Shown: one piece after another, positions 33,947-62,775 of the stretch
How positions within the stretch are numbered: position 1 is the stretch's first letter
How the letters are laid out: every line of letters begins with the position of its first letter
Assembly: GCF_964204645.1 (NCBI RefSeq)
Contig: NC_134027.1
Coordinates: 14,292,485-14,356,484 of the forward strand
Reading direction: 5' to 3'
Origin: Tubulanus polymorphus
Lineage: Eukaryota; Animalia; Nemertea
DNA: 64,000 nt
The notes under the pieces: generated by a model
Told to the model about the DNA's origin: nothing
Database searches by the model: none
The model's input: only the letters and a program-made list of their open reading frames with translations
Made by a program: the position numbers and the translations under genes

Positions 33947-33951
33947 AATAA

Positions 33952-38692: not shown

Positions 38693-39207
38693 TAAAGTTA
38701 CTGCGGAGCCCCAGAAATATCTTTTTTTTCGTTCAAAAGACCTTTCGCTTGAAAATTCTTTTGTCGGAACAAAATTTATTTCGTTCCAACCAATAATATT
38801 CTGTTCGATTGAACCAATTCGAAAAAAACGTTAGAACAAAGTTGAACAAACTTTTTTTTGTCCAAACGAAAGGTTTTTTGTTCGAACAATTGTTCGATTG
38901 AACAGAATCCTTTGAATTTGATCAGAATTTTCTTTTCAGAACATTAAGTTTTTCGTTCGAACAAGTATATTGTAAAAAGTTTTTTCTCCGAACCAAAAGT
39001 ATTAAGTATTTCGTTCAACCGAACAGAATTGTTTTCATTCAAACATTCGTTCGAAAAAATTGTTTTCGCTCAACCAAATTTTTTTGCCGGAACAAAATGT
39101 TTTTCATTTCAACAATAACAAAGCTTTCAGAACGAAGAAAAGTTTTGGTTCAAACAAAAAGCGTACAAGATTTTCTTGTCGGATCATTAAGTTTTTTGGT
39201 CGAACAG

Positions 39208-42200: not shown

Positions 42201-42680
42201 CCCGCGACAATTCATTATTTCGGTTTTGTTGCCCCCACGATTCTTTTTATGGTTTTGTCGCCCGCGACAATTCATTAGTTTGGTTTCGTCGCCCGCGACA
42301 ATTCAATATTTTGGTTTTATCGCCCACGACAATTCATTACTTTGGTTTTATCTCCAGCGACAATTCATTAGTTTGGTTTTGTCGCCCGCGACAATTCTTC
42401 TTTTGGTTTTGACGCCCGCGACAATTCATTATTTTCGTTTTATATTTTGTTTTTGTCGTCCGCGACAATTTTGTTTTTTTGGTTTTGTCGCCCGCGACAA
42501 TTCATTATTTTGGTTTTATCGCCCGCGACAATTCAATATTTTGGTTTTATCGCCCGCGATAATTCATTATTTTGGTTTTATTGCCCGCGACAATTCATTA
42601 TTTTGGTTTTGTCGCACGAGACAATTCATTATTTTGGTTTTATCGCCCGCGACAATTCATTATTTTGGTTTTGTCGCCCG
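39208..42680 (-). repeat. 31-bp satellite, inverted relative to 1728-16815
   Basis: Same unit and variants; contains a ~1021-bp internal duplication. Confidence 0.97.
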
Positions 42681-43019
42681 AAGAAAATTTTGAAGACGCT
42701 TTTATCAATTACCTTGATCTTTCGTTTATATTTGAATCTACCAAAGGCCCATCAGCATAAGAAAATTGGGTCGATCTGACTCAACATGGCCGTCCTATGA
42801 CCTTTTTAGTGCCCAAAAATGTCAATTTTGGCCAGAATTCTAGGTCCTGTAGCTTCCTACTGGTTTGCCATTTCTCATTGCAATTGCTGATGGATATTCT
42901 TTAGAGAGGGATGTTTTATACCTGGGACAGGTATTTTTGATCAGCCAATTATGACGCAATTGGCGGCCATCTTGATGTCATCAGTACTCATTCGTAGGTG
43001 GGAAAAAGTTTTTCCACAA

Positions 43020-43770
43020 TTAATTGATACCTAAGCATATTGTGCTACTATATTCAATTGGAAAGTTGTAGCCCATAACGTGTTCTATGATTTTGGTGAG
43101 TTTCGAGGTCATTGGTTTTTGTATGTGGCCATCAGGGGGCGTTGAATAATACAATAACTTAGTATCGCTAAATTATATTTGTACCAAGGCATATTTTGTT
43201 ACCATGATCAATGGCAAAGTTGTAGTTCATGACATCGTCTATGATTGTGGTGAGTTTGTAAGGACATTAGTTATTCCATATAGTCACCAGGAGGCGTTGA
43301 ATAGTAGAAAAGCTTAGTATTTCCTTATTAGATTGGTACCTAGGCATAGTTTGTTACCATGATCCATTGCAAAGTTGTAGTTCATGACATCGTCTATGAT
43401 TGTGGTGAGTTTTTAAGGACATTAGTTATTCCATATAGTCACCAGGGGGCGCTGAATAGTTGAATGGCTTAGTATTTCCTTATTAGATTGGTACCTAGGC
43501 ATATTTTGTTACTATGATCAATTGCAAAGTTGTATTTCATGACATGTACTACGATTGTGGTGAGTTTTAAGGTCATTGGGTTTTGCATATGGTCACCAGG
43601 GGTCGTTGAATAGTAGAATAACTTAGTATTTCCATATTAAATTGGTAACGAGGCATATTTTGTGATCACAATCAATTACAAAATCATAGCTGCTCACATG
43701 TTCTATGATTGTGGTGGGTTTCAAGGTCATTGGTTTTTGTATATGGTCACTAGAGGGCGTTATGTATTGA
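43020..43770 (+). repeat. ~155-bp tandem repeat (5 units) in a nested element (~42681-43836) ending in hairpins + CTAGT
   Basis: AAAGTTGTA at 43062, 43216, 43371, 43526. Each unit has a CACCAGGGGGCG-like motif. 3' end TGCTCAagTGAGCA...GTCCctGGAC..CTAGT. Confidence 0.8.
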
Positions 43771-43836
43771 AATTGTTAGATTGTTGAGCATTTGAAACCA
43801 CTGCTCAAGTGAGCATGGTGTCCCTGGACCCCTAGT

Positions 43837-44128
43837 TTGGTTTTGTCGCCCGCGATTATTCATTATTTTGGTTTTGTCGCACGCAACAATTCAATAGTTT
43901 GTTTTTGTCGTATGCGACAATTCATTATTTTGGTTTTATCGCCCGCAACAATTCAATATTTTGGTTTTAACGCCCGCGACAATTCATTATTGTGGTTTTA
44001 TCGCCCGCGACAATTCATTATTTTGGTTTTATCGCCCGCGACAATTCATTATTTTTGTTTTGTCGCCCGTGACAATTCATTATTTTGGTTTTGTCACCCG
44101 CGACAATTCATAATTTTGGTTTTGTCGG
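43837..44128 (-). repeat. 31-bp satellite, short diverged continuation
   Basis: Same unit, about 9 copies. Confidence 0.93.
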
Positions 44129-44184
44129 AACATTAAGTTTTTGGTCGAATAGTGTGTTAAGGTTGTTTTGGAAATTTACTCGGT

Positions 44185-44450
44185 CTGGTATATTTTGGAT
44201 TACTGTGTATGTCATTTGTCAGGACATTAACCAGAAGACGACTTAGGATACTACCTTGCGTGACTCCACTAGTTAGACCGTCCCATTCCAAGATGAGGCG
44301 TTCCGTTGATTTCGGTAACAAGTTTCCGTTCAGAGATAACTGCTGTGCCATTTGGGCGACCTATCATTGACACTGTTTCCTAATAGCCTGTTCAGTAATG
44401 GCTGATGTTGAGCCTTATCAAATGCTTTGTTGAAATCCACCGTTGAACAG
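44185..44450 (-). pseudogene. CR1/L2-type RT fragment
   Basis: VDFNKAFDKAQHQPLLNRL and LTSGVTQGSILSRLLVNVLTNDI (resembles GVPQGSVLGPLLF..IND). Confidence 0.7.
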
Positions 44451-44496
44451 GATTCTAAGACTGTGCAGAAAACCCGTTATCGCTGCTTTGCAGCCA

Positions 44497-44964
44497 AGTA
44501 ATAGGGGTAATGGGCTTTCAGATCAAAGGTCGAACGGTCGAGCTCATTAAAAAACAAATATTAAAAGTAATTTAAAACTATAATATATTTTCATAACCGT
44601 GTGCATTTTATATTATAACTAAATATTTATTCTAAGATATTAATAATTTGAATTTTAAAAGCATATTGTATTAAATCAATTGGTCGCTCCACTTCGCTAC
44701 CGCTCCGCTCCGCGACCAATTGATTTATTTATAATACACAAATTCATATAATCAAATATATTCAAATAATAATAATTATTCTATTATTCAACTGAAATAC
44801 ACACGGTTATGAAAATATATTATAGTTTTAAATTACTTTTAATATTTGTTTTTAATGAACTCGACCATTCAACCTTTAACCTGAAAGCCCATTACCCCTA
44901 TTACTCTTAAAATATTCATATACATGAATAACATTTAAATTGACAGATTATTCAATATAAAAGT
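44497..44964. repeat. Left TIR containing a 409-bp fold-back palindrome (44497-44905)
   Basis: Reverse complement of 58534-59002; central 16-bp perfect stem 44672-44687/44712-44727. Confidence 0.93.
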
Positions 44965-44995
44965 GTAAGCTCTTATAGAATAGATTTATAAATAG

Positions 44996-45514
44996 TTATT
45001 TTATAAATTTATATTCATATGGAAATTGTAGTCTCAGTAATAATTTTGAACCTTTATTGTAGAATAAAACTAGAAATCTTATATTCTCCCTAAAGTCTTT
45101 AACAATTGAATTATATTTTTGATTTAAAACCCATGTTGTTATCCCAAAATGTCTTCCAGAGAAAGCTAGATAACATAACTCACTTTCTCTCACTTTTGAA
45201 TCATGTACATTTGCGCAATCATCTACAATGAATAATGTATTTGATCCTTTATAAGTATCAATTGCTATTTTAATACAACTATCTAAATTTTCTTTTACTG
45301 TTTTAGAATTTAATATAATAAACTTTTTTATCTTAACTATATCTCTATTATATGTTTTATTCATTTCATAAGTAGGACAGAATATTATTATATTATCAAA
45401 ATGATTCTTATAAATAGTTTCTAACAAATCTAATATGAAATGTGTTTTACCACAATTGGTTACTCCAGTAACTAACATATTATGCGGTTCAAATATAAAT
45501 AAATCTTTATTCAT
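44996..45514 (-). CDS. A32/FtsK-like packaging ATPase (possibly shortened)
   Basis: GVTNCGKT, LFIVDD, SGRHFGI. Confidence 0.85.
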   Translation of the reverse strand: MNKDLFIFEPHNMLVTGVTNCGKTHFILDLLETIYKNHFDNIIIFCPTYEMNKTYNRDIVKIKKFIILNSKTVKENLDSCIKIAIDTYKGSNTLFIVDDCANVHDSKVRESELCYLAFSGRHFGITTWVLNQKYNSIVKDFRENIRFLVLFYNKGSKLLLRLQFPYEYKFIK

Positions 45515-46617
45515 TTATTCTTTTAATTTTACTAGATAAAATCCATTCATTAAATTTATCATCATACCCTTTATATTTCACCAAAGAATACTTTTTTCCT
45601 TTTGTTTTTGTTTTCAATACTTTTTCTATTTTGTATTCTATTTCCTCTGGATTTGGTACAAGTGACAATTCTTGTTCATAGAAATAACCTAATATTTCTT
45701 CATCTTTTAAATCTTCTAATTTATAAACAAATGGTTTAGTTAATATTATCTTTTTAATCTTGAATATTTCTTCTGTGAAATTTGGGGTATAACCTTTATA
45801 AAATGTTTTTCTATATTTAGATATTCTTACGTGTTGTCCATTTTTAAATTTAGGTTCTCCGAAATCATGTGTAACAAATGCTCCATATAAATTATTCCAA
45901 ACTATTTCCGAATTATCTTCTTTTCTAGCTTGTATAGGTTTCATATTTATAGAACTATGTTTAGAATTATTATAACCTTTCACTAAATCATCTAATACAT
46001 CGATATATTTATATGTTTCATTAGCAGTAAAATATTTCCACATTCTAGTTTTCAATGTTTTATTAAATCTTTCTATAATAGATGCTTTTTTATCTGAGTG
46101 TGTTGAAAAATAGTCTTCATCGTTATCAGATAATAGTTTTTTTTAAATGTTTATTATAAAATTCCTTACCTTCATCAAATTGTATCTTATCTGGAATAGC
46201 TTCTTCAAATATATTCTTAAAAGCATTTGTCACTTCTATACCAGTTTTATTTCTGATTGGAATAGACCATGCGTATCTACTGAATATATCTATAACATTC
46301 AGTATCCAGAAATATCCTTTGTTGTATTCTTCTAAGTTCTTCATGTCAATTAAATCTGCTTGCCATTGTTGATCAATATATGAAACCATAACTTTTCTTG
46401 TTAAATAAGTTTTATCCATTTTCTTGTGGATTTGATATGTGGGTTGATTTTGTAACCATGATTTCAATTCACTATATTTTATATCACCATGTGGGTGCCG
46501 TACGGCACCATTTTCCTTATCAGATTTAATTTTATTCCATAATTCTGAAACGTTAGAATATGATACTTCACTTTCTGGGTTATAATATAACTCTCTTAAA
46601 TATTGTTCTTTTTTCAT
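45507..46617 (-). pseudogene. rve integrase + chromodomain, frameshifted
   Basis: WQADLIDM...IDIFSRYAW...IQFDEGKEF / ...YSLVKYKGYDDKFNEW. Confidence 0.9.
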
Positions 46618-46623
46618 CTTATT

Positions 46624-46992
46624 TTAATCCATTAATAATAATTTAGACTTAGTTTCAATGACTTTATGATTTGACTTATCTTCTGGTATAATAGGTTTAT
46701 TGTCATTGGAATCATCTTTATCATCAGATTTGAATTTTGATTTATATATTACACCGGATAATATAATAACTGTTACTAATCCAATTGTAATATATAATTT
46801 ATAATTACTTCCAGCATTAGAAGAACCAGATGGATTATCATTCGAATCAATATCAGATAAAGTCTGTGATTCATTTATATCAGTTAATTTCTTTTTCTTA
46901 GCTCTTTTTAATTCTGAAGATCTTTTACCTAATTCTCTTGCCCATTTAATTTGTTTCTCGGATCTAGCCTTTTTCTTAACTCCATCACTCAT
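46624..46992 (-). CDS. Basic N-terminus, single-TM hypothetical protein
   Basis: TAAATG start, intact ORF, TM segment LYITIGLVTVIILSGVIY. Confidence 0.6.
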   Translation of the reverse strand: MSDGVKKKARSEKQIKWARELGKRSSELKRAKKKKLTDINESQTLSDIDSNDNPSGSSNAGSNYKLYITIGLVTVIILSGVIYKSKFKSDDKDDSNDNKPIIPEDKSNHKVIETKSKLLLMD

Positions 46993-47587
46993 TTATTTTA
47001 GTTAATTTTTGTTCTGATTCATTTTCTGTTTCGCCGTTTGGTTGCAGTACATCTGTTTCGTTCTTACCTGATTTATATTCCATAGGTTTGATGTTCGAAA
47101 ATGTTATGACGCCAGTAGAAATTAATGTCATAACCGATCCTAATTGAAATGAAGCATAACCAACCCATTTTTGTAATTCAGTCATAACTAAGTAGTCATT
47201 TTTCAAATCACTATATAATTTATTTTCATCATTAATTGGTATTAACTGGTTACATAACTTAGAAAAACATTTGACAATACCATCTGAAATAGAATCATTT
47301 ATTCTAGCTAATCTAGCTTCTTCATAAATCTTAAAATATTTTATTACTTTATCGGGTTTCATAGCATCTAGTTCTTGATAAGTTAAAATTTTTCCTAAGA
47401 AATCCTTAGATTTCCCGCCAGCAATTAATAATTGAAGATGATACTTACAATATAAATAGTATTCATAATCAATATTGTTATTAACTTGAATAGAATTAGA
47501 AACAACTGTATCTTTATTATCACTTATACCCAAATCATCTAATGTTTTTTCAATATCAATACTATTCTTATTAGATTTCTTTGACAT
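46985..47587 (-). CDS. Hypothetical Polinton protein, 200 aa
   Basis: TAAATG start, intact ORF in an operon-like run. Confidence 0.65.
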   Translation of the reverse strand: MSKKSNKNSIDIEKTLDDLGISDNKDTVVSNSIQVNNNIDYEYYLYCKYHLQLLIAGGKSKDFLGKILTYQELDAMKPDKVIKYFKIYEEARLARINDSISDGIVKCFSKLCNQLIPINDENKLYSDLKNDYLVMTELQKWVGYASFQLGSVMTLISTGVITFSNIKPMEYKSGKNETDVLQPNGETENESEQKLTKINE

Positions 47588-48199
47588 TTATATTAGAGAA
47601 ATTTAATAAGAAAAATATTATAAGTATTCTGATACTAGATAGTTAAAGTTAAAGAATTCTAGTATTGACTTCTGATACTATCTATTTGAATTTAAAGAAT
47701 TTCTATTTTAATCTATTCAAAATATAAAGTATTCTCTTTTGAAAAGAAAGTATTAAAAATATAATGGAATTCACTAGCTAGTTGAAGTTATTGTTTTTTA
47801 AATACTTTTTATTTAAATTAGGATTTAGATTATCTCACTACTATTGTTTATCTATAGGAGCAGTAACTATAACTGTCCAGATAAGTCATTTCGGATTCTT
47901 GATAATAAATCCTAAAACTGAAAATAAATTCAAAGAAACGACTGGTGGAAATACTATTTCATAAACACACATATATTTTATTCTACAATCATTATCGATT
48001 TCCACATTCCAAGCCGCTCCTGAGAGGAGCGGTAAGGTATGCGTGGAATGCAGGAATCAATAAAGTACAATACAACATCTGTCAATGTGTGTCATTAACA
48101 ACAGCTTAATGACGCAATTGAAATTCCGACAAACGTAATGCATTGGAAGCCTATACAGTATGGCTAAACTGCTACAGTCTCATGAGTTGAAATATCCAT

Positions 48200-48825
48200 T
48201 ATTTCTGATTCCACATCCATCTATCTTCACTTCTAACGATCTAAATATAATTTCATATCTAGTTTGTTAGATTTAAATATATTTTCTTTCTTTTCAAGAG
48301 GCCTTTAATTTCTCCAGTTCCATATTAGCTTCTTATTATAATCATCATTCATGTTAAATTTAGAAATCGGCAACACATGATCAATATGAAAGTATTCACC
48401 ATAATTATCTATATTCATTTTATCATCGAATTGATATATTATCCATGATATGAAAAATTCATCTGAACAACCCAATAAATTAGATAGTGTTTCGAATGTG
48501 TTTCTTTGTTGAATAATTGTGTTAATCTAGATCTTAAGCATTGTTTTAATCTAAAATCAAGATCTGTTTGATATCTTTCTCTCATATATTCTGTCATATA
48601 ATCATTATAAGCTTCTCTATTATCTTCTCTGTATTGTTTGGTATATAGTACAATGTATATACAAGTTTTACAGCAATATTGAAAACCATCTTTGCTAATC
48701 TTACGCTTACTAAATTCTGTTAAAGCTAATTTATCTAATTCACACTTAGAACACTTCTTGTAGTATATGTTTATGACACCAGTGTTATTTGTAATATTGA
48801 TAGTTTGTGGTTGTTCTGGTTCCAT
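48200..48825 (-). pseudogene. Zn-ribbon + HNH endonuclease, frameshifted with a stop
   Basis: KKCSKC...CKTC, then in a second frame LLGCSDEFFISW..QFDDKM..DNYGEYFHIDHVLP...NWRN*RPL...ENIFKSNK. Confidence 0.75.
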
Positions 48826-49357
48826 TTATTATACATATTTTTTTTTCTAAATTGATTTTAGAAGTTATTCATTTATATGTGATTCATGAATATATATGAA
48901 TTATTTCAATAAAACTTTACTAACATTTTAATGTTTAAAAATCTACCTCATACAAATATAAATATTGAAATATGTTTAAAATATACCTATTTATTAGATA
49001 CCCTATTAGATACCCTAATACCTGATACCCTATTAGATACCTTAAATACTTAAAACCCCCTTTTTAAAAATAAATATTATTTATACAATTTTCAACCAAT
49101 TTATTTTTATTTTTTCAACTAATATATGAATAAGTTTGAAAATGATAAAGGTTATTTATTATTACTGAGGTTTCAATTTCCATATGAATATCAGTTTATA
49201 AAATAAGATATTTTATGTATTAGATTGTATTAGATTGTATTAGATATGTATTAGATACCTTAAATACCTTAAATACTTAAAACCCCCTTTTTTATTCACT
49301 ATTATTTTATACAATTTTCAACCAATATTATTATTTGTGTTAAATATAATTAATATC

Positions 49358-50188
49358 TTAATCACTTTCATCATCAGACCCTAACAATTTATTCAAATTC
49401 TCTACCGAATTTTCTTCTTCAAATTCTCTATTATTTTTATACTTATTTTTCACCTTTTTTACCGCATCATCAATAGTTGTTTCATTGTTATGCTTATTCA
49501 TCCGATCAAATTTATCATTATATTCTACTTTATGTTTCATAGAATCTTTATAAGTGTTTGCTCCTAATATTTCATTAACAGTGTTTGATCCTAATATTTC
49601 ATTAGCATCGGTTAGATCTAATTCATCTTTATTAGGTGTTGCTAATAATAAATCTTCATATATTTTTTCACCATTTACTTTTTGATTTGAAACAAACTTT
49701 GTAACATATCTAAATGGGTGTTCTATCAATTCTTTTAAACCAACTCGTTCTATAACATTATTTATATGTACCCTTGTATTCATATGTTTATTCCAATTTG
49801 ATGTAGCGTTTGAAAATTCACTTTTACAATATCCACAATAATTTCTATTTTCACTAACATTTAATATTATTTCATTATTTGATGTAGAAGTTATTACATT
49901 ATTAGATGTAGAAGGTATTACATTATTAGATGTAGAAGGTATTACATTATTAGATGTAGAAGGTATTACATAATTAGATGTAGAAGGTATTACATTATTA
50001 TCAATTACATTACTTAAATTATCAACAACACCACTTTTATTATCGATTTCTATTAGTTTAGTTTTATAAATTTTGAAAATAGGATCAAATATCAAAGCTA
50101 TATTACAAGGTATAACATAATATAAACCATCATTATTTTCATGTGTATCGATGTATGGAATATGTTTATATACTTTACCTCCTTCCAT
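49358..50188 (-). CDS. Protein with (NNVIPSTS)n repeats and a C2H2-like finger
   Basis: 24-bp tandem repeat; YCGYC...KHMNTRVH; homologue at 61999. Confidence 0.7.
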   Translation of the reverse strand: MEGGKVYKHIPYIDTHENNDGLYYVIPCNIALIFDPIFKIYKTKLIEIDNKSGVVDNLSNVIDNNVIPSTSNYVIPSTSNNVIPSTSNNVIPSTSNNVITSTSNNEIILNVSENRNYCGYCKSEFSNATSNWNKHMNTRVHINNVIERVGLKELIEHPFRYVTKFVSNQKVNGEKIYEDLLLATPNKDELDLTDANEILGSNTVNEILGANTYKDSMKHKVEYNDKFDRMNKHNNETTIDDAVKKVKNKYKNNREFEEENSVENLNKLLGSDDESD

Positions 50189-50238
50189 TTATATAATAAA
50201 TATTTATTAAAGTTAAAATTTTAATACATAACACTATC

Positions 50239-51468
50239 TTATTGTGAATTTACAATATTTAATTGCGCGTCAGATATAATATAAATGTGCATTTTAAAAT
50301 TTTTGATTCCTTTATTCTTTGTCATGAATAATTGTATTCCATCTTTAGTGTTCTGTAGTTTTTTTCCAGAACCATGTAATGAATTATCCTCTGTTGTTCT
50401 AAAATCTAACCATAATGCATATTTATTACCGGTATAATAATCAATCTGATTAATGTTACAATTTTCAGATGATTTCACTTTTTCATTCATAAAATGTTTT
50501 CTAATTTCTGGCCATTGATCAATCATTCTCATTCCTTGACAAAATATTTTATTTGCTATTCCTTCGATAGTTATTTCTACTTTTGTTATTTCAGGATTAT
50601 AATAATTATCAACATTTATTGCGCCATTAGTATATGTTGCAATGGTAAAAAATATTAATATACCTTTAATAGATCTTCTTGGGAAGTTAATATTCTCATT
50701 AATAATTTCATCATTTGCATTAATAGTTACAGTTTTAAATTTATCAATATAATCAAATAATAATGAAAATCCTTGATTGTATTGAGTTTGAATTATACTT
50801 AAAATATTTTCATCAGTTACTGTGTCATATTCTAAACATATATTCGATGATTTATAACTCATATCTTTATTAACGCTAGATATTACAATTTCATTTACAG
50901 GAGCAAATGTTATTTCGAATATAACATCTTCTTGAATTGCGTATTTATATAAAGGTGCATCGTTATTTATCAATTCAAAGTCTAATGGAATTTTATATTT
51001 GATTCCATATATACTTTTTATCAAACTATCTGCGGTGCGAGTTACTATTGCGTCATTAGCTCCTGATCTTAATTTATTATGGTTTTCTGATTGGATGCCT
51101 TGAAATATCATATTATTTCTATTTTCTTTAGTTAACCATAAATCTTTATAATGCATGAATAAATTATAATCATCTAATGAGAAAACTGTTTCTGGACCAA
51201 TCTTTATAGTTAATTTTTTAATCAAATATCTCCCAACATTATCAACAACATAATTATTATTATTACCGATTACTTTTATATCGGCAGATAAATAAATACT
51301 ATTTGGAACATAAAAAGTATTTTGTGTTAATCGAGGAATTCTAACATATAAAGTTTCATCGGGATTAATATTAGAAGGGTTATGAGTAATTATATGATGT
51401 GATCTTTCTGCTTTAATAGCATTAGATATTCTATGATTCTTAGAAGGATTGATATAACTCCCACTCAT
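50239..51468 (-). CDS. Major capsid protein (double jelly-roll, inferred)
   Basis: 409 aa, ITHNPSNINP.E.LYVRIP...VPNS..L...N.GR.LIKKL.I..G pattern. Stops 6 codons earlier than the D copy. Confidence 0.75.
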   Translation of the reverse strand: MSGSYINPSKNHRISNAIKAERSHHIITHNPSNINPDETLYVRIPRLTQNTFYVPNSIYLSADIKVIGNNNNYVVDNVGRYLIKKLTIKIGPETVFSLDDYNLFMHYKDLWLTKENRNNMIFQGIQSENHNKLRSGANDAIVTRTADSLIKSIYGIKYKIPLDFELINNDAPLYKYAIQEDVIFEITFAPVNEIVISSVNKDMSYKSSNICLEYDTVTDENILSIIQTQYNQGFSLLFDYIDKFKTVTINANDEIINENINFPRRSIKGILIFFTIATYTNGAINVDNYYNPEITKVEITIEGIANKIFCQGMRMIDQWPEIRKHFMNEKVKSSENCNINQIDYYTGNKYALWLDFRTTEDNSLHGSGKKLQNTKDGIQLFMTKNKGIKNFKMHIYIISDAQLNIVNSQ

Positions 51469-51488
51469 TTATTTAACAAAAAAATTAA

Positions 51489-52807
51489 TTATTTATTTTT
51501 TATCATGTTTACTAGCCCAAAAATAATAGCACTTACAACTGTAAATAAAATAACATGTTCAGCAGCAAAGTTAATAATGTTTCCTGCAGATTTCAATATA
51601 AAACCAACAATTGATGCAATAACTCCTGGTAAAGCTGCGGCAGATTTTTTAGATAGTTCCCATAAATATTTTGCTAATTTCTTTAAACCATCCTTAACTT
51701 TATCTTGTATAGAATTATTATCTGGGGGTTTATCCGGTTTATTGGGAGTAGGAGTAGATTTTAAAGCATTTGATATTGCTAAACCAATTGTTGTAAATAC
51801 CATAGTTACAGCTGTTAGAATTGAAAGAATTGTTATTCCTTCTAATTTAAATAATAATTTTATTCTATCTTTCAATGATATTTTAGAATCTGGTTTTATC
51901 AACAAATCTTTAAAAACATCTTTTAATCTTTTAAAATTATTACCAAATTCTTTTAATAATATATCTCTTTCACCTTTCAGTACTTCTAAATTATCTTTTA
52001 AATTATTAATTTCTTTTTCTAAACCTAATTCTTTTTGCCTATATTCTATTTCATCAATTGCTTGATGGTCTAAATCAGACTTTAATTTTTCTATTTCTTT
52101 ATTTTTATCAGTTAATTCTTTTTCTAAATTGTTAATTTTAATATCTCTTTTACTTTTTTCATGCGCAATTTTATCAGCTGATTCTTGCATACCTTTAATT
52201 TCTCTACGTGTTTGTTCAGGATATAATTCTAATTCATCATCAGTTAAATCAAGTAATCCCTTCGGTAAAAGTTTTTCAGTTTGAACTTCAGTGTTTGATT
52301 TAAGTTTACTAGTTTTGGAATTATCAGCTTCTTTAGGAATTTTTTTTTGTCTTAAATTTTCATTAATTATCTTAAAAAATTTAGCATTTCTTTGTTTAAA
52401 TTCTTTTATATTATCATCTCTTTCTTTTTGTGTAACATCAGTTATAACATCATTAATGATTTTCTTAATTCTATCTGGTTTAAATAAATTAAAAGTTGAT
52501 TGTGTTATTATTTTATCGTTACTTTTAAGATTTGAAATCTTAAAATAATAGTTGCCTTTCAATTTCCAATAATAATCGCCATTTACATATTTCAAATCTT
52601 CTACTAAATAATCCATACCTTTATTTGTTATATTGAAACCAGATCTTTTTAACATTGGTTTAAAATCACTAGCAATTTCATTATATTTAAATTTTTTTTT
52701 CTAATTCTGGTACTTCATTTTGAATATCTATTCTCGATTTAGCTCCTCTAATATATTCATCTGTTGATGGGTTCATTTAAAGGATCCAATGGAATTTCTT
52801 CATCCAT
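51489..52807 (-). pseudogene. Coiled-coil protein with C-terminal hydrophobic helices; N-terminus frameshifted
   Basis: ORF 51489..52655; TAAATG at 52807; homologue at 59610-61068. Confidence 0.65.
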
Positions 52808-54141
52808 TTATATAATAAAAAATAAAATTTAAAATATAATATTCCTCCGATTACAATTCCTATACAAGTTAAAGCTAATTTAGTATTTTCATGGGATTTA
52901 TTATCATCATTTAGTTTAATTATTTCATGTGGAATAATATCAGTTTTTATATTTTCCGATGTATTGTAATCTTTTATTTTAGAATCATTATCTAATTTAA
53001 TATTATTAGTTTTAGTTTCAGTTGATTGAATATGTTTTTTATTTTTTTCACCTTCCATTAATTTTGGAGCAGTAATAATCTTTTTATTTATATCATTTAA
53101 TCCAAATGAATTATTTATTGTTGCAGTTTTAATTAGATTATTATAACTAATTATGTTTCCCATCTTTAATACTAAATGATTAGAAATAATAAATAGATTA
53201 GGGCCTATATAATAATTTAATCTAATATGTGGTTTATCTAAATAATTTTGATATCTTACAATGTTTTCTGGAATAGATCTATTTTTATCATTATGAATTG
53301 AATCTTCAAATAATACTTTAAACTGTTTCTGCGCATCGAATGAAGTGTTATCATTTCCAATTATTGGGGATCTTGTTTCAACTTGTGCACCTAAAATACA
53401 TATCAAATAAGTTCTAATAGATTGATTTATTCTTTGTATACCAGCTTTAGTAAAACCTTCACCATTTTCTAAAATGAAATTAACCCAACCATTATTGTTT
53501 TGTTGTTGTATATTATTATAATATTTTGGTAATTCATTCCAATTCAGTGTTCTTATATCTGAATTTGTCATTATTTTTCCAAATTCTTTAGTATACAATA
53601 TTCCTAATCCACCCATTGTTCCAATTTTTGCTCTAAAATCTTTATTTGAATTAATATTAAATTCATTACATATTTTATAAAACTTAGAAAAATTAATATT
53701 ATTATTCAATTCTTTAAAATATTTTGAACCTGGTAAAGGACATTCTAATTCATCTAATATTAATTCTATTTGAAAATATGTATGAAATCTAAAAAGTGAT
53801 AACATCAATGGTAAACTTGGTTTGTTTAAATGATCATTCCAACTAATTCCACATCCTGTTGTTGCACAATAAACAGCAAAATTTATTTGGTTCGGCCAAT
53901 ACTTCATATTAGATTTTAATAACCATTGTTTTGCCTCATTTAAATTTTTGAAATTAATTGTATACACATGAAATATATTTTCCATCTTTACATGAAAATT
54001 ATTACTTTCAGTAACATAAATATATAAATCAATTAATGAATTTAAAACTTCATTTCTATATGTAATATCTTTATTAAAATCTATTGCTGGAATATTATAT
54101 TTAATTGATTTATTATATTAGAAAGCTTTTGGAAACCCCAT
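52777..54141 (-). pseudogene. Conserved protein (QINFAVYCATTGCG) with C-terminal TM; early stop
   Basis: TAAATG at 54141; main ORF 52777..53985; homologue of the split gene at 36222/59013. Confidence 0.7.
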
Positions 54142-54157
54142 TTATATAATAAAAAAA

Positions 54158-54592
54158 TTAATAATTTATTAATTCTTTTAATAATTTATCTTGTTCTTCA
54201 ACTGTTATATGACCATTTAAACTTATTATATAATCTAGTGTATTCTTCAATTTATTGATTTCTTTTATATTAGTTTTAATTTTTTCTTTATTACTTTTTA
54301 TATTTAATTTTGAACTTATACCGGTTAAAACACTTGAACTTAATCCTAATACACCAATTGATATAGCTAAAGGTGTTAATGGACTGAATATTGCTAGAAA
54401 TGTTATTACAGAACTAATTGTAACCGAACCACTTATAATCAAATAATATATAATTTTAGATTTTAAATATTTTTTCTTTTTAACTTTTAAGTCACTTTCA
54501 AATTCTAATATTTGTTTTTCTAAATATGTTTTTAATTTAGTTTTATTTATATCATGAGGAATAATATCAATATTATCAACTTAATCATCCAT
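54158..54592 (-). pseudogene. Two-TM protein, early stop
   Basis: Homologue of 35771-36205. Confidence 0.6.
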
Positions 54593-54612
54593 TTATTTAG
54601 CAAAAAAAATTA

Positions 54613-55035
54613 CTAATTAGTAAACTTATATGCTACAAATATAACAATAACAGTTCCACCTAAAATCCAAATTATTTCATATTTCTGTTGTTCTTTACTT
54701 GGGGTATAATAATCTGATAATTTAGGTTTGTATAGATGTAATTTTTCTTTATTTGTTATCGCGTTATATAAACTCATTGCATCATCAACTGATTGAAAAT
54801 CTCCATGTGAAATCTTCTGATCATATAATTCTTTGTTAATATAATCCATATAGTTTTGTCGTTTTTCTCTATATTCTTCCGCTGCTTTATTATATTTCTC
54901 TAATGCTAAGTTATGTCTTTTGTGTTCTGTTAATGAACCATTTTTATCAATATGCTTGAATAAATAACCACCTCCAGTAAATGCTAAAGCGTTAACAATT
55001 GCTGATCCTATAATAGTTATAATTGCAGAAGCCAT
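54613..55035 (-). CDS. Membrane/coiled-coil protein, 140 aa
   Basis: Intact, TAAATG start. Confidence 0.75.
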   Translation of the reverse strand: MASAIITIIGSAIVNALAFTGGGYLFKHIDKNGSLTEHKRHNLALEKYNKAAEEYREKRQNYMDYINKELYDQKISHGDFQSVDDAMSLYNAITNKEKLHLYKPKLSDYYTPSKEQQKYEIIWILGGTVIVIFVAYKFTN

Positions 55036-55059
55036 TTATTTAGTAAAATAATTATGCAT

Positions 55060-55281
55060 TTATATGGGAGGAATATATTTTTGTTTTTCCAAATAATCAA
55101 TAGTTAAATTAGATAAAGTAACTGCTAATGTTAATTTTAAAATATCATTGATATCAAATCTATCAACATAAACACTTCCCATTTTGAATACTTTTTTTAA
55201 TACCATTGAATAACCAACAGTTCCAACTGATAGTAATGCGCCATTATATAATCCAGTTATTATCCACTTATTATCACTCAT
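55060..55281 (-). CDS. Small hydrophobic protein, 73 aa
   Basis: Conserved with 35081..35302. Confidence 0.7.
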   Translation of the reverse strand: MSDNKWIITGLYNGALLSVGTVGYSMVLKKVFKMGSVYVDRFDINDILKLTLAVTLSNLTIDYLEKQKYIPPI

Positions 55282-55638
55282 TTATTTATCAAAAAAATTA
55301 CTATCATCAAAATATTTAGTTATCTTATTTATGATTAATTCAACATTTATTTCATTACTAGTTTCATTTGTATATATTTCAATTATTATTTTTTTAATAT
55401 CATCTATAATAAAATGTTCATCTAATTCATAAAATCTTAAAGATTCTCTAATTAAATTAGTAATCTTTTCTACATTTAAAGTTTCTTTATCTATTGTTGT
55501 TTCATACTCAAATGTTGTTTCATTAGAAAATGCAATATTTTTGATATGTGTAATTACATCATTAACGTTAAATTTCATTTCTTTCTCACGTTTAAAATCA
55601 AATCCAAAACATATACTCGGCCCAACAGTTATATTCAT
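55282..55638 (-). CDS. Hypothetical acidic protein, 118 aa
   Basis: Conserved with 34724-35080. Confidence 0.7.
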   Translation of the reverse strand: MNITVGPSICFGFDFKREKEMKFNVNDVITHIKNIAFSNETTFEYETTIDKETLNVEKITNLIRESLRFYELDEHFIIDDIKKIIIEIYTNETSNEINVELIINKITKYFDDSNFFDK

Positions 55639-55654
55639 TTATATAATGAAAAAA

Positions 55655-56348
55655 TTACTCTCTACATCTTATAACTAATTCATAAATTACAGGAAAGTTA
55701 TTCAAATCAATTAAATGTCCATTATGATTTCTTATTTCTAATTTAAAATTATTAAATTTAGGAATGCAAGGTTTAAAATCACATTCATTTAAATTATAAT
55801 TTATTTGAGTTCCAAATTGTTTAACATTTTTCAGCGGTAAAATATTTAGTATACTAGAACTACAAATTGTTTCTTTAGTTGCTTCGAAAGTTTTTGTAGG
55901 CTCGATTAAATTGCAATAAATATAAAAGTGTGTAAAAGGTATTATATTTGAATTACCATCTACGTTTCCTGTAACAGTATCTGGTACAATTCCTAACAGT
56001 TTAGCTATAGGTTTTCTCACTATAGATGCATGTTGACTTTCATCATATACCTTTATTTTAATTTTATTTGTGCTATCACTTTTTATAAATCTAATTAAAA
56101 ATTTATCTTCACTTCTAATTTTCAAGGTGAAACCATTTATTTACATTTCTAATATGAATCATAAAAGCATTATGATCAATAGTTTTATTCGATATATTAT
56201 AAAAAGAATTACATAAACTTATATTAACTAATTTTAAATCTACACAATTCTTGAATTCTCTATCTAATTGAACTAGTAAATTATGAGATTTATAATTTGT
56301 AAGTCTTCTAGAATCAACAAATATTTTGTATTCTTTTAATTCCGCCAT
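55655..56348 (-). pseudogene. Minor capsid protein, frameshift/deletion
   Basis: Two ORFs matching the halves of 33952..34707. Confidence 0.75.
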
Positions 56349-56365
56349 TTATTTTACATATTTTC

Positions 56366-56716
56366 TTATTCGAAATCTATTTCACGGTGCCCTTTTTCAT
56401 TACCTTTGTATACGAAATAGAAATCTCCAGAACATAATTCTTCTAAGTCTTCACTTGATAATCTATGAAATCTATCCGGTAAATATGTTCTGAATTTATA
56501 TGTATTTCCTTTTAATCCTTCATATTCTAAGTGTATAACTAATTTATCTCCATAGTTATTAGTAACTGTAACAATATATGTAATTAGATTTTTCTTATGG
56601 ATTGTTAATTCTGTTAACTTTTTGAATTTATAATCTACAGATTTTACATTTGTTATATCTTTAATTCTATCTAGAAATAATTTGTTGTTCTCACTGTGCG
56701 CTTGTTTACTCTCCAT
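56366..56716 (-). CDS. Conserved small protein (possible ssDNA-binding)
   Basis: Homologue of 33584..33946. Confidence 0.6.
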   Translation of the reverse strand: MESKQAHSENNKLFLDRIKDITNVKSVDYKFKKLTELTIHKKNLITYIVTVTNNYGDKLVIHLEYEGLKGNTYKFRTYLPDRFHRLSSEDLEELCSGDFYFVYKGNEKGHREIDFE

Positions 56717-56744
56717 TTTAATAACATATTTTTATTAAAATTTG

Positions 56745-58386
56745 ATTAACACGTTAGAATTCTTTTCAATTAGTTCTGGATAATCAGATTTAATATATAA
56801 CCCGAAAGCTGCAGCTGATTGATGAATCTTTTTAATAGTATTTGTTATTGGTGGTTCTTCTGAAAAATCATTTTCATTAGAATTTAATTTCTTTCTTTTA
56901 TAATATATTTCTTTTCTATCTTGATCAGTTAGTTCTTTATTTAATGATTCAAAATCTCCATATATAACAAATGGAACTTTATTTTTGTAATCATATTTTT
57001 TTAATTCTAATATTTTATCCTTTTTATTTGGTAAAACTAATTTACAATAATCATGATTTTCACATAATTGTTTATGATTTAATAATGTACTTTCATTACT
57101 GAATCTATGAAACATTTTCTACAAAGATATATTTTATGGTGATCATTTTCTGATTTAAAAAATAAATCGATTTGTTTAATCCACATATAATGATTATCAT
57201 AATATAGTATATCTATAACATCGTTTGAATCAGAATCTTTTGATAGGTATAAAGGTTCTAATGTATAATGTTTTATATTGTTACCTTTTGTATTTGGTAA
57301 TTTGATTAAATCAAATACATTTATCTTTATATTATTATCTCTTTCTATTTTTGGGATGTTTTTAATTATAACAGGATACTTATCTATCTTATAATTATTT
57401 TCAAATGGTTTTGTAATGAGTTAATCTACAAATATTATAAGTTGCAGGATGTAAACAACTAATTATTGCCCATAGAAAACATTTATCATCTTCATTTTGT
57501 ACATTTATAACAGCATTAGTTTTAAATGGTAGTTTAATATAACTCGATGCTTCAATATCTGGTTCTTTATAATATGATACATTATTTTCATCAATTGGTT
57601 TTGATTTAGTTAACTTATTATATTTTGTGTTATAAACATGTAAAGTCATAAATATTATTTCATCAAATATTAAACCAGATCCTTCAAAATATTTCTCTTC
57701 TTATTTTAGTTTTTACTACATTATAACATTTATCTAATTTTTCATCTATCTGTTGTTTTGAAATAATATGTTGTGAATGGGAATTTATATTATGTATTGG
57801 TTTATCTTCAGATTTTATAAATTTAACTTTAGAAGATATACTAATTTTAGGGTATTCAACATCTGTAATTATTCTTTATTTCTTTCATATTTTCTAAATG
57901 TTTTTTATTTTCTTCTAATGTTTTTCCTTTATGAAATTTAAACTCGATAGCTGCTGGACCAATATCACTTTTAAATGCTTCGGTTATCTCTATATCTTTT
58001 TTATTATCTAATGAATTAATATAATTTCTTACATCTTCCATGTATGGCCTTTTATCGTTTAATTTATTTTTTAATTGTCTTCTGTTTCTTATCATTATCT
58101 TTATCAAAATAATCTTCACCTAAAATATCATTATTCTTATTTCTAATATGACTTTTAGATTTGAAATGTTCATTATAATATCTTTTATCACTGAATGATT
58201 GATTACATGTATCACATTTGTTTCTTTTTCATTCTTTAATTCATCTAATTTAGTTTCTAATATATCATCTTTATATTCTAATTATAATTTATTCTCTAAA
58301 TGTGTTTTAGTTTTATTGTGTCTTGCTTTTTGGGATTTATCTATATTGATATTACATGTTGGACAGTAGTACTTATTTGCTTCCAT
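56745..58386 (-). pseudogene. pPolB remnant, core deleted
   Basis: Matches 29521-31165 joined directly to 33537 onward. Confidence 0.9.
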
Positions 58387-58533
58387 TTTAATACTAATAT
58401 TTTTATTAAAATTGATTTTAGAAGTTCAATGATTTATATCATGTATTATTTCAATCACACTTTACTAACACTTTTAATGTTTAAAAATCTAACTCACACA
58501 AATATGAATATTGAAATAATGTTGTAAATATAT

Positions 58534-59002
58534 ACTTTTATATTGAATAATCTGTCAATTTAAATGTTATTCATGTATATGAATATTTTAAGAGCAATAG
58601 GGGTAATGGGCTTTCAGGTTAAAGGTTGAATGGTCGAGTTCATTAAAAACGAATATCAAAAGTAATTTAAAACTATAACATATTTTCATAACCGTGTGTA
58701 TTTCAGTTGAATAATAGAGTAATAATTATTATTTGAATATATTTGATTATATGAATTTGTGTATTATAAATAAATCAATTGGTCGCGGAGCGGAGCGGTA
58801 GCGAAGTGGAGCGACCAATTGATTTAATACAATATGCTTTTAAAATTTAAATCATTAATATCTTAGAATAAATATTTAGTTATAATATAAAATACACACG
58901 GTTATGAAAATATATTATAGTTCTAAATTACTTTTAATGTTTTGTTTTTTAATGAGCTCGACCGTTCGACCTTTGATCTGAAAGCCCATTACCCCTATTA
59001 CT
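58534..59002. repeat. Right TIR with fold-back palindrome (58593-59002)
   Basis: Reverse complement of the left TIR. Confidence 0.93.
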
Positions 59003-59011
59003 CAGCTATAG

Positions 59012-59593
59012 TTTAATTTGTATTTTAGGTGCGCAAGTTGAAACAAGATCACCAATAGTTGGAAATAATAACACTTCATTCGATGCGCAGAAACAATTCA
59101 AAGTATTATTTGAAGATTCCATTCATAATGATAAAAATAGATCTATTCCAGAAAACATTGTAAGATATCAAAATTATTTAGATAAATCTCATGTAAGAGT
59201 AAATTATTGTATAGGCCCTAATCTATTAATTATTTCTAATGATTTAGTATTAAAGATGGGAAACATAATTGGTTATAATAATCTGATTAAAACTGCAACA
59301 ATAAATAATTCATTTGGATTAAATGATATAAAAAGATTATCACTGCTTCAAAATTAATGGAAGGTGAAAAAAATAAAAAACATATTCAATCAACAGAAAC
59401 TAAAACTAATAATATTAAATTAAATAATTATTCTAAAATAAAAGATTACAATACTACAGAAAATATTAAAACTGATAATATTCCACATGAAATAATTAAA
59501 CTAAATGATGATAATAAATCCCATGAAAATACTAAATTAGCTATAACTTTTATAGGAATTGTTATAGGTGGAATATTATATTTTAAATTTTAA
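59012..59593 (+). pseudogene. 3' half of the gene begun at 36222
   Basis: Matches the C-terminal half of 52777..53985. Confidence 0.85.
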
Positions 59594-59609
59594 TTTTTTT
59601 ATTATGTAA

Positions 59610-61068
59610 ATGGCAGAAGGTGGAGAAGATTATGAAATGGAAAACATGGGAAATAATGATGATGTCAATACTAACAATGATGATTATATGACTGCTGATA
59701 CTAATATTGATAATGATAATGATACAACATATAATACTAATTTAGCAGATGTGGTTCTAAAGCCCCATCAACAGAGGAATATATTAGAAGAACTAGATCG
59801 AGAATAAAACCTGAAAATGAAAATCAAGGTTTATCAAGACAAGATTTAGAAAATAATGAATTTATGTATAAATTCAAACCTGTATTTAAAGATTCTGGAT
59901 ATAATATAAATGCCAGAGGTGCCAGACTTTTAGTACAAGAATTAAAACTTTTAGATAATGGTGAATATTATTATCATTTGAAAGATGATTATTATATAAC
60001 TATCACTTATAAAAATCAAAATATAATATTAGCAGAATCAACTTTGAGAAAATTAGAAACATTTAGAATTAAAAGAATAAGTAAAAGTAATGAAATAGAA
60101 AATGTTACACAAGAAGAAATAAATCAAAATAAAAGAGTATTCAAACAAAGAATTGAAAAACTATTTGAAACAATTGATAATAATTTAGAAAAAGAAACAA
60201 CTTCTGAACAGAATAAAACTTCCAAAACTAGTAAACTTAAATCAAACAAAGTTCAAACTGAAAAACTTTTACCGAATGGATTACTTGATGCAACAGATCA
60301 AGAAATAGAAGCTTTAAGTATGTTTTCCAAAAAAAACAATTAGAGAATTTATTAGTATACGAAATGAAGCTGATAAAATTGCGCGCGATAAAAATATTAG
60401 ATATAATAAAATTAAACCTTTAGAAAATAAATTATTTGACACCAGAAAAGAATTAGAACAATTAAAATTAGATAGAGAATTTAAAGTTATTGATGAAATT
60501 GAATTTAAAAAAAGAAATGCATATTTAGAAAAAGAAATTGATGATTTAGAATATAACATAGAATTTCAGAAAGAAAAAATGAAATTATTATTAAAATCAT
60601 ATGATTATTGTATTAATAGATTAAAATTTGTTGTTAAAGAGTTAATACTAAAACCAAATTCTGACATATCACTAAAAGATAGAATAAAATCATTATTAAA
60701 GTTTGAAGGAATAACAATTCTTTCACAATTCTAACAGCTGTAACTATGGTATTCACAACAATCGGTTTAGCTATATCAAATGCTTTAAAATCTACACCTA
60801 CTCCCAAAAAACCAGATAAACCCCCGAATGATAATAATTCTATACAAGATAAAGTTAAAGATGGTTTAAAGAAATTAGCAAAATATTTATGGGAACTATC
60901 TAAAAAAATCCTCTGCAGCATTGCCCGGAGTTATTGCGTCAATTGTTGGTTTTATATTGAAATCTGCAGGAAACATTATTAACTTTGCTGCTGAACATAT
61001 TATTTTATTTTTAATTACAGTTGTAAGTGCTATTATTTTTGGGTTTAGTAAACATAATCAAAAATAAA
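59610..61068 (+). pseudogene. Coiled-coil/hydrophobic protein, multiple frameshifts
   Basis: Fragments 59610, 59864 and 60746 are homologous to 51489..52655. Confidence 0.7.
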
Positions 61069-61091
61069 TAATTAATTTCTTTGTTAAATAA

Positions 61092-61966
61092 ATGAGTGGG
61101 AGTTATATCAATCCTTCTAAGAATCATAGAATATCTAATGCTATTAAAGCAGAAAGATCACATCATATAATTACTCATAACCCTTCAAATATTAATCCTG
61201 ATGAGACTTTGAATTGATAAATAATAATGCGCCTTCATATAAATACGCAATTCAAGAAGACGTTATATTCGAAATAACATTTGCTCCTGTTAATAAAATT
61301 GTAATATCTGGCGTTAATAAAGATATGAGTTATAAATTATCGAATATATGTTTAGAATATAAAACAGTAACTGATGAAAATATTTCAAGTATAATTCAAA
61401 CTAAATACAATCAAGGATTTTCATTATTATATGATTATATTGATAAATTTAAAACTGTAACTATTAATGCAAATGATGAAATAATTAATGAGAATATTAA
61501 CTTCCCAAGAAGATCCATTAAAGGTATATTAATATTTTTTACCATTGCAACATATACTAATGGAGCAATAAATGTTGATAATTATTATAATCCTGAAATA
61601 ACAAAAGTAGAAATAACTATCGAAGGAATGGCAAATAAAATATTTTGTCAAGGAATGAGAATGATTGATCAATGGCCAGAAATTAGAAAACATTTTATGA
61701 ATGAAAAGGTGAAATCATCTGAAAATTGTAATATTAATCAAATTGATTATTATACCGGGAATAAATACGCACTATGGTTAGATTTTAGAACAACAGAGGA
61801 TAATTCATTACATGGTTCTGGAAAAAAACTACAGAACACTAAAGATGGAATGCAATTATTCATGACAAAGAATAAAGGAATCAAAAATTTCAAAATGCAC
61901 ATTTATATTATATCTGACGCGCAATTAAATATTGTAAATTCTCAATTAAATAGTGTTATGTATTAG
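61092..61966 (+). pseudogene. Major capsid protein with ~370-bp internal deletion
   Basis: PDETL joined to ELINN at ACTTT microhomology, relative to 50239..51468. Confidence 0.75.
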
Positions 61967-61998
61967 AATTTTAATTTTAATAAAAAATTTTATAATAA

Positions 61999-62775
61999 AT
62001 GGAAGGAGGTAAAGTATATAAACATATTCCATACATCTATACACATGAAAATAATGATGGCTTATATTATGTAATACCTTGTAATATAGCTTTGATATTT
62101 GATCCTATTTTCAAAATTTATAAAACTAAACTAATAGAAATCGATAATAATAAAAGTGGTGTTGTTGATAATTTAAGTAATGTAATTGATAATAATGTAA
62201 TACCTTCTACATCTAATAATGTAATACCTTCTACATCTAATAATGCAATACCTTCTACATCTAATAATGTAATACCTTCTACATCAAATAATGAAATAAT
62301 ATTAAATATTAGTGAAAATAGAAATTATTGTGATTATTGTAAAGGTGAATTTTCAAACGCTCCATCAAATTGGTATAAACATATGAATACAAAGGTACAT
62401 ATTACTAATGTTATAGAACGTGTTGGTTTAAGAGAATTTATAGAACACCCATTTAGATATGTTACGAAGTTTGTTTCAAATAAAAAAGTAAATGGTAAAG
62501 AATTATATGAAGATTTATTATTAGCAACACCTAATAAAGATGAATTAGATTTAACCGATGCTAATAAAATATTAGGATCAAACATTGTAAATGAAATATT
62601 AGAAGCAAATACTAATAAAGATGATAATGAAAATATAGTTACAGATAAGCATATTGATAATAAAGATTCTATGAAACATAAAGTAGAATATAATTATAAA
62701 TTTGATTGGATGAATAAGCATGACAATGAAACAACTATTGATGATGCGGTAAAAAGGATGAACAGGGAAGTGTGA
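61999..62775 (+). CDS. NNVIPSTS-repeat/Zn-finger protein, C-terminus truncated
   Basis: Homologue of 49358..50188. Confidence 0.65.
   Translation: MEGGKVYKHIPYIYTHENNDGLYYVIPCNIALIFDPIFKIYKTKLIEIDNNKSGVVDNLSNVIDNNVIPSTSNNVIPSTSNNAIPSTSNNVIPSTSNNEIILNISENRNYCDYCKGEFSNAPSNWYKHMNTKVHITNVIERVGLREFIEHPFRYVTKFVSNKKVNGKELYEDLLLATPNKDELDLTDANKILGSNIVNEILEANTNKDDNENIVTDKHIDNKDSMKHKVEYNYKFDWMNKHDNETTIDDAVKRMNREV

Follow-up and report, generated by a model that had tools for sequence, protein, structure and literature searches.

The window analysed here, a stretch of 64,000 nucleotides (nt) from the nemertean Tubulanus polymorphus (contig NC_134027.1, positions 14,292,485 to 14,356,484 of the forward strand; positions below are counted from its first letter), contains at 44497-59002 a decayed 14.5-kb Polinton with a Beta-type pPolB. 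Each terminal inverted repeat (TIR) of this element begins with an imperfect palindrome of about 410 nt that is predicted to fold back on itself. It is proposed, with a probability of about 0.45, that the palindrome would serve as a local fold-back origin for terminal protein (TP)-primed synthesis, which would keep its orientation. The hairpin is a property of the Polinton family and not of any present activity of the decayed copy.

Structure of the terminal palindromes

The TIRs measure 471 bp on the left (44497-44967, + strand) and 472 bp on the right (58531-59002, - strand), are 97% identical over 472 columns and fall within the 100-1500 bp range of Polinton TIRs. They are flanked by a 6-bp target-site duplication (TSD), CAGCCA at 44491-44496 and CAGCTA at 59003-59008, with one mismatch between the copies; the ends read AGTA...TACT, in keeping with the AG(T)...(A)CT ends of Polintons, and reads end at 44497. 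A sequence-only reading of this DNA had equated each TIR with a palindrome. Its coordinates and overall description of the ends hold, but the palindromes occupy the outer 409 nt (44497-44905) and the outer 410 nt (58593-59002), and the TIRs extend 62 nt further inside (44906-44967 and 58531-58592).

The arms of about 110 bp, the perfect 16-bp stem and the 24-nt loop that had been described were all recovered, and the end motif occurs twice per end, the right inner copy with one substitution, at 58595. On the left, the outer arm (44497-44608, + strand) starts with AGTA and has the CG form of a tandem GGTCGA motif, and the inner arm (44795-44905, - strand) is an inverted copy of the end with the GGTTGA form. 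Between them lie the outer (44609-44671) and inner (44728-44794) halves of an unpaired bubble and, at the apex, the stem-loop (44672-44727), in which 44672-44687 pairs with 44712-44727 around a GC-rich loop at 44688-44711. On the right, the inner arm is found at 58593-58703, the outer arm at 58890-59002, the stem at 58771-58786 and 58811-58826, and the loop at 58787-58810. The palindrome has the same orientation at both ends. The bubble is as AT-rich as had been claimed (12% GC), but its halves are complementary only at chance level (625 of 2000 shuffles score as well).

The arms pair at 105 of 111 positions on the left and 99 of 111 on the right. Folded as DNA, the left end reaches -118 kcal/mol against a shuffle mean of -28 (z -22.2) and the right end -107 kcal/mol against -32 (z -18.5), with 0 of 100 shuffles as good in either case. 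Perfect pairing is tightest at the very terminus (first 25, 10 and 19 nt), and in the predicted fold the pairing of the 3' end extends through its final base, with that end directed into the genome. The palindromic nature of each terminus makes the two (44497-44905 and 58593-59002) direct repeats of each other as well, and recombination between them might release a circle, with a solo palindrome staying behind.

Inheritance and orientation in the host

Raw reads of a run with the same species label from another study (X6, 12% read) and contigs X2-X4 were aligned to 44440-45240; the run may not be independent of the source of the window. Read depth was 1117-1290 over the palindrome centre, 1117 in the inner TIR bin and 636-719 over the ATPase gene, and this twofold ratio indicates about two palindromes per element with no excess of solo units. 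Loose read ends numbered 1718 before 44497 and 464 before 44496 (2182 in total) with an agreement of 0.34-0.36, so many insertions terminate at the outer AGT. Among the six classes of loose ends listed (the smallest of 370, with 339 further classes), none lies behind 44905; flipped, solo or inner-ended copies would thus amount to less than about 15%, provided that each read was placed where it matches best. Variants are mirrored between the arms: 44512 G>A (877/2682, 33%) by 44890 C>T (544/1552, 35%), and a one-base insertion behind 44573 (226/1625, 14%) by one behind 44825 (143/1078, 13%). Deletions of the centre occur in few host reads (6-10 each).

The palindrome is therefore inherited and family-wide, and is neither a miniature inverted-repeat transposable element (MITE) nor an assembly fold-back. 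Look-alikes of such units do exist among the loci described below, namely a TTAA-flanked fold-back element (L029) and a candidate that overlaps pPolB and is likely an artefact (L070), both of which were rejected. That the 409-bp unit is an independent MITE or an assembly fold-back is highly improbable and largely refuted by the host reads: both ends have their own mutations, the centre is evenly covered at twice the ATPase depth, no large class of loose ends is seen at the inner ACT, and the TSD flanks the whole element, with no independent dispersal of the unit with a TSD of its own. A dispersed MITE and copies ending at the inner ACT were the outcomes that the sequence-only reading had set against itself; neither appeared in the host, yet one relative, L012, has a plain end.

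Fold-back ends in related elements

A pPolB-alignment search gave 101 loci (7 viral, 80 of 525 metagenomic and 14 from genome collections). BLAST of the TIR against 87 loci found 0 matches at the DNA level, and fold-back ends in relatives have the same build with a different sequence. L011, with an intact pPolB of 1363 aa that is 75% identical, has a 257-nt fold-back end at 190-446 (z -10.6/-15.9), and the apex sequence of the stem-loop at 44672-44727, CCACTTCG, is common to its apex in the same orientation. L008 (76%) opens with a stem-loop of 16 bp and continues into an inner arm in inverted form, as would be expected had the assembly broken inside a palindrome; since short-read assemblies break at fold-back ends in this way, the trait may be under-counted. 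L097 (31-33%, intact pPolB of 1248 aa) has a 129-nt fold-back at 5614-5742 that runs from AGTAGT to ACTACT 150 nt before the ATG, and stands in a distant clade set apart by starred branches in the tree. L012 (63%), sister to the clade of the window element, L011 and L008, shares a homologous outer end but lacks an inner arm.

A strict fold-back scan of the 101 loci gave 14 matches in 6 loci (0-1 in shuffles), and among 30 folded regions upstream of pPolB, L011 (z -19.7) and L097 (z -5.8) stand out. Most loci do not reach an end; on these sequences the trait is patchy, with either two origins or one followed by losses. Other candidates were set aside. L081, L071, L074 and L038 (z -4 to -6) have no terminal pattern on inspection, L007 and L091 are host tandem repeats, and L004, L006 and L042 have inverted repeats with no visible true end. 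A 365-nt inverted repeat between divergent element genes of L013 (653-1025) has end-like arms but is internal and ambiguous; it may mark a junction, either circular or head-to-tail, or a promoter duplication. The relaxed scan for hairpins upstream of pPolB, covering 56 loci, was left unused because shuffles matched in 3-9 loci. The exact end motif had 0 matches in the viral contigs, and capsid searches of these contigs found 0 relatives. In L019 (5-230), two direct AGTAGT end-like motifs lie 212 nt apart with no inverted copy. L088-L101 are 14 Polinton-bearing, eukaryote-like contigs within bacterial or archaeal records of metagenome-assembled genomes, probably through binning contamination.

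Asymmetry of the arms

Outer and inner arms differ in the same way at both ends, as the sequence-only reading had noticed: five differences are identical at the two ends, and the remaining ones are private to one end. Each of the five shared mismatches is a transition and yields a G.T pair on the strand that ends at the terminus with its 3' end. This direction is also found for 3 of 3 transitions in L011 and 2 of 2 in L097, as against 2 of the 6 transitions private to the right end. In the tandem motif, outer arms have CG and inner arms TG in the window element, L011, L008 (inner arm) and L012 (outer arm), and at one of two sites in a sister copy within the window. This asymmetry points to selection acting on how the single strand with the 3' end folds, with arms that keep their places rather than swapping them, and the palindrome looks selected for single-strand folding.

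A neutral by-product, in which template switching inverted and duplicated the end once or twice and copying with gene conversion spread it, appears improbable. The patchy spread would suit it (L012 lacks the trait and L097 is far from the clade), as would the centre deletions in host copies; accidental annealing is named as an alternative in a preprint on protist elements (bioRxiv 10.64898/2026.07.28.741278), and a protein-primed plasmid deletion that forms hairpins is cited in PMC11161782. However, the arms are 87-95% paired with a bubble at chance, sequence has turned over beyond the reach of BLAST, the wobbles are strand-biased, and variants are mirrored in both arms.

A proposed local fold-back origin

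The fixed orientation and the G.T wobbles on the 3'-end strand favour an origin at a folded 3' end over the nick-and-flip mode of adeno-associated virus (AAV) and poxviruses. Single-stranded intermediates would be involved, as in the racket or panhandle model, the standard model of Polinton replication (summarised in PMC4196379). A single strand, once displaced or excised, would fold its 3' end onto the inner arm, and the TP-primed polymerase would start on the duplex end so formed; the fold-back would replace the 14-17-kb panhandle and shield the 3' end. Priming opposite the terminal T would copy the outer arm first, so that no nick would be needed and no flip/flop would arise. The outer arm would be held by protein recognition and the inner arm need only pair, which would let the latter drift through C-to-T and A-to-G substitutions, pairing being kept as G.T. 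The inner copy could also template the restoration of a chewed 3' end, and the arms would thereby be kept alike. Self-priming from the paired 3'-OH would be an occasional side reaction, which the His-Me finger of pPolB may or may not clean up.

The sequence-only reading had envisaged hairpin ends resolved by nicking and extension, as in parvoviruses and poxviruses, rather than protein-capped ends. The flip/flop isomers predicted by such resolution were not seen: orientation is the same at both ends, in the sister copy, in L011 and in L008, and the reads leave less than about 15%. The integrated ends are full, open palindromes at the outer AGT and do not end at the loop, as closed hairpins would. 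The choice between hairpin and protein cap would itself be a false one, the polymerase keeping a putative N-terminal TP/vOTU-type region.

The hairpin could instead have a role other than priming, as a packaging or maturation signal, as a target for the integrase or for excision via a cruciform, or as protection of a single-stranded end. Mismatches in the vaccinia hairpin matter for maturation and not for DNA synthesis (PMC8956199), structure is kept here while sequence turns over, with an apex motif common to L011, and capsid and ATPase genes are present. Such a role is nevertheless unlikely: the two strands of a cruciform are equivalent, so that wobbles confined to one of them would not be expected, and perfect pairing is closest at the terminus itself, the place expected for an origin.

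Several observations weigh against the fold-back origin. Only integrated copies were seen, with no extrachromosomal molecule among them, and all steps of the mechanism are inferred. Beside a single-stranded template, a paired 3'-OH should self-prime readily, which fits a rolling hairpin. The TP domain of pPolB is putative. The wobble counts are small and their direction was first noticed in the window, so that the relatives by themselves give 5/5 (p about 0.03); L011 also has 5 transversions, and the alignments of L011 and L097 have gaps. The strand bias of the right end is small (folds of -107 and -102, the + strand at -107.2 being the 3'-end strand), and CpG decay could add to the wobble bias. 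Among the 101 loci, most of which do not reach an end, a fold-back starting with AGTA was found in L011 and L097 only, and L012 lacks the inner arm altogether. In the host reads, 44895 C>T (413/1574, 26%) lacks a mirrored counterpart in the 40 variants listed out of 151, and the bound on flopped copies rests on short reads and on the loose-end classes listed. The depth of the outer arm, 1503-1941, is 1.3-1.6 times that of the centre, and 478 reads diverge behind 44553; together these imply the existence of further arm variants or of ends that lack this centre.

The polymerase and its EndoVII-like finger

In the 44497-59002 copy, pPolB is a remnant (56735-58386, - strand) whose N-terminal part lies in several frames; about 2.4 kb, including the EndoVII-like finger and the polymerase core, is deleted, corresponding to 31165-33532 of the sister copy. 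The pPolB of the latter (29659-33554) is broken but undeleted. Its exonuclease region has phi29 polymerase as best structural match (Z 14.2, root-mean-square deviation 3.0, 191 aligned residues; VIA), and an EndoVII-like His-Me finger, CxxC..DHDH..HxxCN, is inserted in the exonuclease domain at 31315-31416 (+ strand), flanked by exonuclease sequence. The finger matches Pfam PF02945 just under its cut-off (E 6e-5, 23.3 against 23.6 bits), a family that also includes the restriction enzyme Hpy99I (PMC5714182). Its Atlas neighbours are named EndoVII-like, and its Zn-binding Cys and catalytic-type DH and CN residues are conserved. Foldseek with the pPolB piece gave no match below E 0.001 and VIA listed no endonuclease VII (endo VII) match, which does not exclude the fold. 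In the putative vOTU region at the pPolB N-terminus, Cys (DKCF) and His (HY) motifs are conserved, and a region upstream of it is of the right size for a TP domain, with unnamed Atlas matches; a TP-vOTU-Exo-Palm layout is described in PMC11161782.

What had been attributed to the family's pPolB as an endonuclease VII domain, the EndoVII-like finger, is present in the sister copy, in L012 and in 109 of the 120 homologues, some of them from arthropods and corals, and is deleted from the 44497-59002 copy. It cannot be taken as an established junction nuclease: junction cutting is known for the dimeric, 157-aa T4 enzyme, of which only residues 10-60 align (E 0.6), and not for a 34-residue core. 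A role of the finger as resolvase for the hairpin ends is hypothetical, and the finger is near-universal in its polymerase group regardless of a hairpin end.

These features bear on an asymmetric rolling hairpin, a version of the scheme in the sequence-only reading, which is considered possible but doubtful. In such a scheme, 3' fold-back would self-prime and yield hairpin-closed monomers and dimers, the EndoVII-like finger would nick one arm only, chosen by the G.T mismatches, and either one orientation would be kept or a single isomer would integrate. The predicted fold, with its fully paired 3' end pointing into the genome, would suit this scheme. The 62 nt of TIR inside the palindrome are placed like the D sequence of AAV, and the conserved arm asymmetry resembles the bubble of the left end of minute virus of mice (MVM); a bubble and an inner, non-palindromic part of the repeat are features of the AAV inverted terminal repeat and the MVM left end. 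Some bocaparvovirus ends are known in one form only (PMC8242256), T4 endo VII, which acts as a dimer, nicks mismatches and branched DNA (PMC10956419), the DH and CN residues of the finger being conserved, and the same model has been put forward for protist virophages as well as polinton-like viruses (PLVs; bioRxiv 10.64898/2026.07.28.741278). Against this scheme, no flip/flop is seen, the finger matches only residues 10-60 of the 157 of an enzyme whose junction cutting requires a dimer, and it is also present in hairpin-less L012. Nuclease inserts in pPolB have been read as homing-nuclease or intein relics (PMC11161782), and the palindromes of the preprint are tied to non-pPolB elements. An as yet undescribed hybrid mode in animal Beta-pPolB Polintons, with protein-capped 5' ends and self-priming 3' hairpins whose G.T asymmetry would direct the finger to nick one arm, is rather unlikely.

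Comparison with known systems

The element resembles the Beta-PolB Polintons/Mavericks (Betadintovirus; Starrett 2021, PMC8502044, there binned with Polinton group 1) in its TIR, 6-bp TSD and AGT...ACT ends, and in its RVE integrase, ATPase, double-jelly-roll capsid and divergent OTU-type pPolB. It differs in TIRs that begin with a long palindrome and in that no maturation protease was found among the open reading frames scanned. The window pPolB pieces have no Pfam match to PF03175, which fits the Beta class of Starrett 2021, although some homologues do carry PF03175. Small nucleases fused into pPolB are also known from the HNH and VSR inserts of pPolB2 (Jeong 2023, 10.1101/2023.08.22.554363), but pPolB1/2 belong to Group 2, whereas the window polymerase is of another class, with a PF02945-like finger.

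In the literature covered, no palindromic ends were described for animal pPolB Polintons; RepBase, Kapitonov and Jurka 2006, subscription papers and bioRxiv supplements lie outside this coverage. The main texts of PMC8097293 and Jeong 2023 contain neither 'hairpin' nor 'palindrom', and PMC8502044 has no instance of 'hairpin'; a further candidate source (10.1101/2022.05.25.493380) concerns protein beta-hairpins and not DNA ends. Palindromes in TIRs beside a TSD, together with an RVE integrase, are described for endogenous virophages and PLVs of Halocafeteria seosinensis, and a hairpin-priming model for terminal palindromes has already been proposed there (bioRxiv 10.64898/2026.07.28.741278, July 2026). 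That host is a protist, the figured subtype has 52 nt, and its palindromes are said to accompany mostly non-pPolB replication genes; the window family is an animal pPolB Polinton with palindromes of 129-410 nt, a bubble, fixed orientation and strand-biased mismatches. Terminal palindromes are thus known in protist virophages and PLVs, and the window family extends them to pPolB-bearing animal Polintons.

Streptomyces telomeres (Tpg/Tap, PMC4513846) likewise combine a 5' terminal protein with a 3' strand that folds on an inner complementary copy, and thereby set an example of TP priming where the 3' end is folded, with self-extension from that end as a side product; they differ in their internal origin, several short palindromes, unrelated proteins and lack of integration. 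Parvovirus termini (PMC8242256) share a terminal palindrome and a paired 3' end, here in a predicted fold, but the window element has no flip/flop and has its own pPolB and integrase. No HUH/SF3 Rep nickase (Rep/NS1) was found among the window open reading frames (ORFs) scanned against Pfam. Neither the flip/flop nor the Rep of a parvovirus-type replicon was thus seen, yet the element may work partly like one. Poxvirus flip-flop telomeres (PMC8956199) are alike in their AT-rich, incompletely paired hairpin in a double-jelly-roll virus; the poxvirus termini, however, are loop-closed and come in two isomeric forms, whereas the integrated end in the window is an open, full palindrome in one orientation.

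Gene content and surroundings of the element

The Polinton features found are TIRs, TSD, pPolB, RVE integrase, ATPase and double-jelly-roll capsid. On the - strand lie the packaging ATPase (44996-45514; Pfam Pox_A32, E 4.4e-11) and an RVE integrase with a C-terminal chromodomain, split into two frames (45507-46617; Pfam rve E 1.6e-7, Chromo E 0.002). A stand-alone HNH-type nuclease gene in two broken frames (48305-48825, - strand), its HNH motif read by eye, has an intact relative at L011 5129-5833. The major capsid protein (MCP), a double jelly roll (50239-51468, - strand; model pLDDT 80.6), matches iridovirus and PBCV-1 MCPs in Foldseek (E 1e-15). A candidate minor capsid protein in two broken frames (55655-56348, - strand), its identity inferred, is open in the sister copy (33952-34707), where it has no Pfam match. 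Among the scanned ORFs of this decayed element no maturation protease (adenain-like) had a Pfam match, no dedicated profile search having been made. The protease likewise went unrecognised in L057, though most other genes are common to it and the window element, and the Polinton clade of the two may lack it. The 5' region of pPolB (58378-58544) is duplicated at 48817-48995, ahead of the HNH gene, and short A-rich motifs recur upstream of many ATGs (44996-45057, 49145-49206), likely as a promoter or translation signal.

The truncated sister copy (29248-36939, + strand) is 88-94% alike and has only the inner inverted arm, of another arm variant, up to 29410. It is flanked by inverted copies of a small hairpin repeat (28770-29010, 36940-37000), as if captured or cut by another element. 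A third, internal fragment of the family, in opposite orientation and without a terminus, lies at 59012-62762 (+ strand), and the three Polinton pieces lie amid a 31-bp satellite (1573-16400, 39000-44154) that is present in either orientation, in about 450 copies. A second, unrelated Polinton at 16467-27898 has an Alpha-type pPolB of 1289 aa (PF03175, E 9e-50) with a VSR-like insert read by eye, an intact integrase, an ATPase and a gene for a TATA-binding protein (19377-19949; Pfam TBP, E 3e-32). A TIR was not found for it, so that it is unusable as a control for fold-back ends.

Significance

Were the hybrid mode true, the widespread nuclease inserts of pPolB (EndoVII-like and VSR, kin to mismatch nickers) would be terminal-processing domains, and the protein-primed Preplasmiviricota would be connected with parvoviruses and large DNA viruses through their hairpin-primed replication. 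The picture of Polinton excision and replication has been the racket model since 2006 and is still hypothetical. A conserved, strand-biased fold-back end offers a compact and defined substrate that allows protein priming to be separated in vitro from self-priming and from nicking by the pPolB insert, and the finding extends terminal palindromes from the mostly non-pPolB virophages and PLVs of protists to pPolB Polintons of animals.

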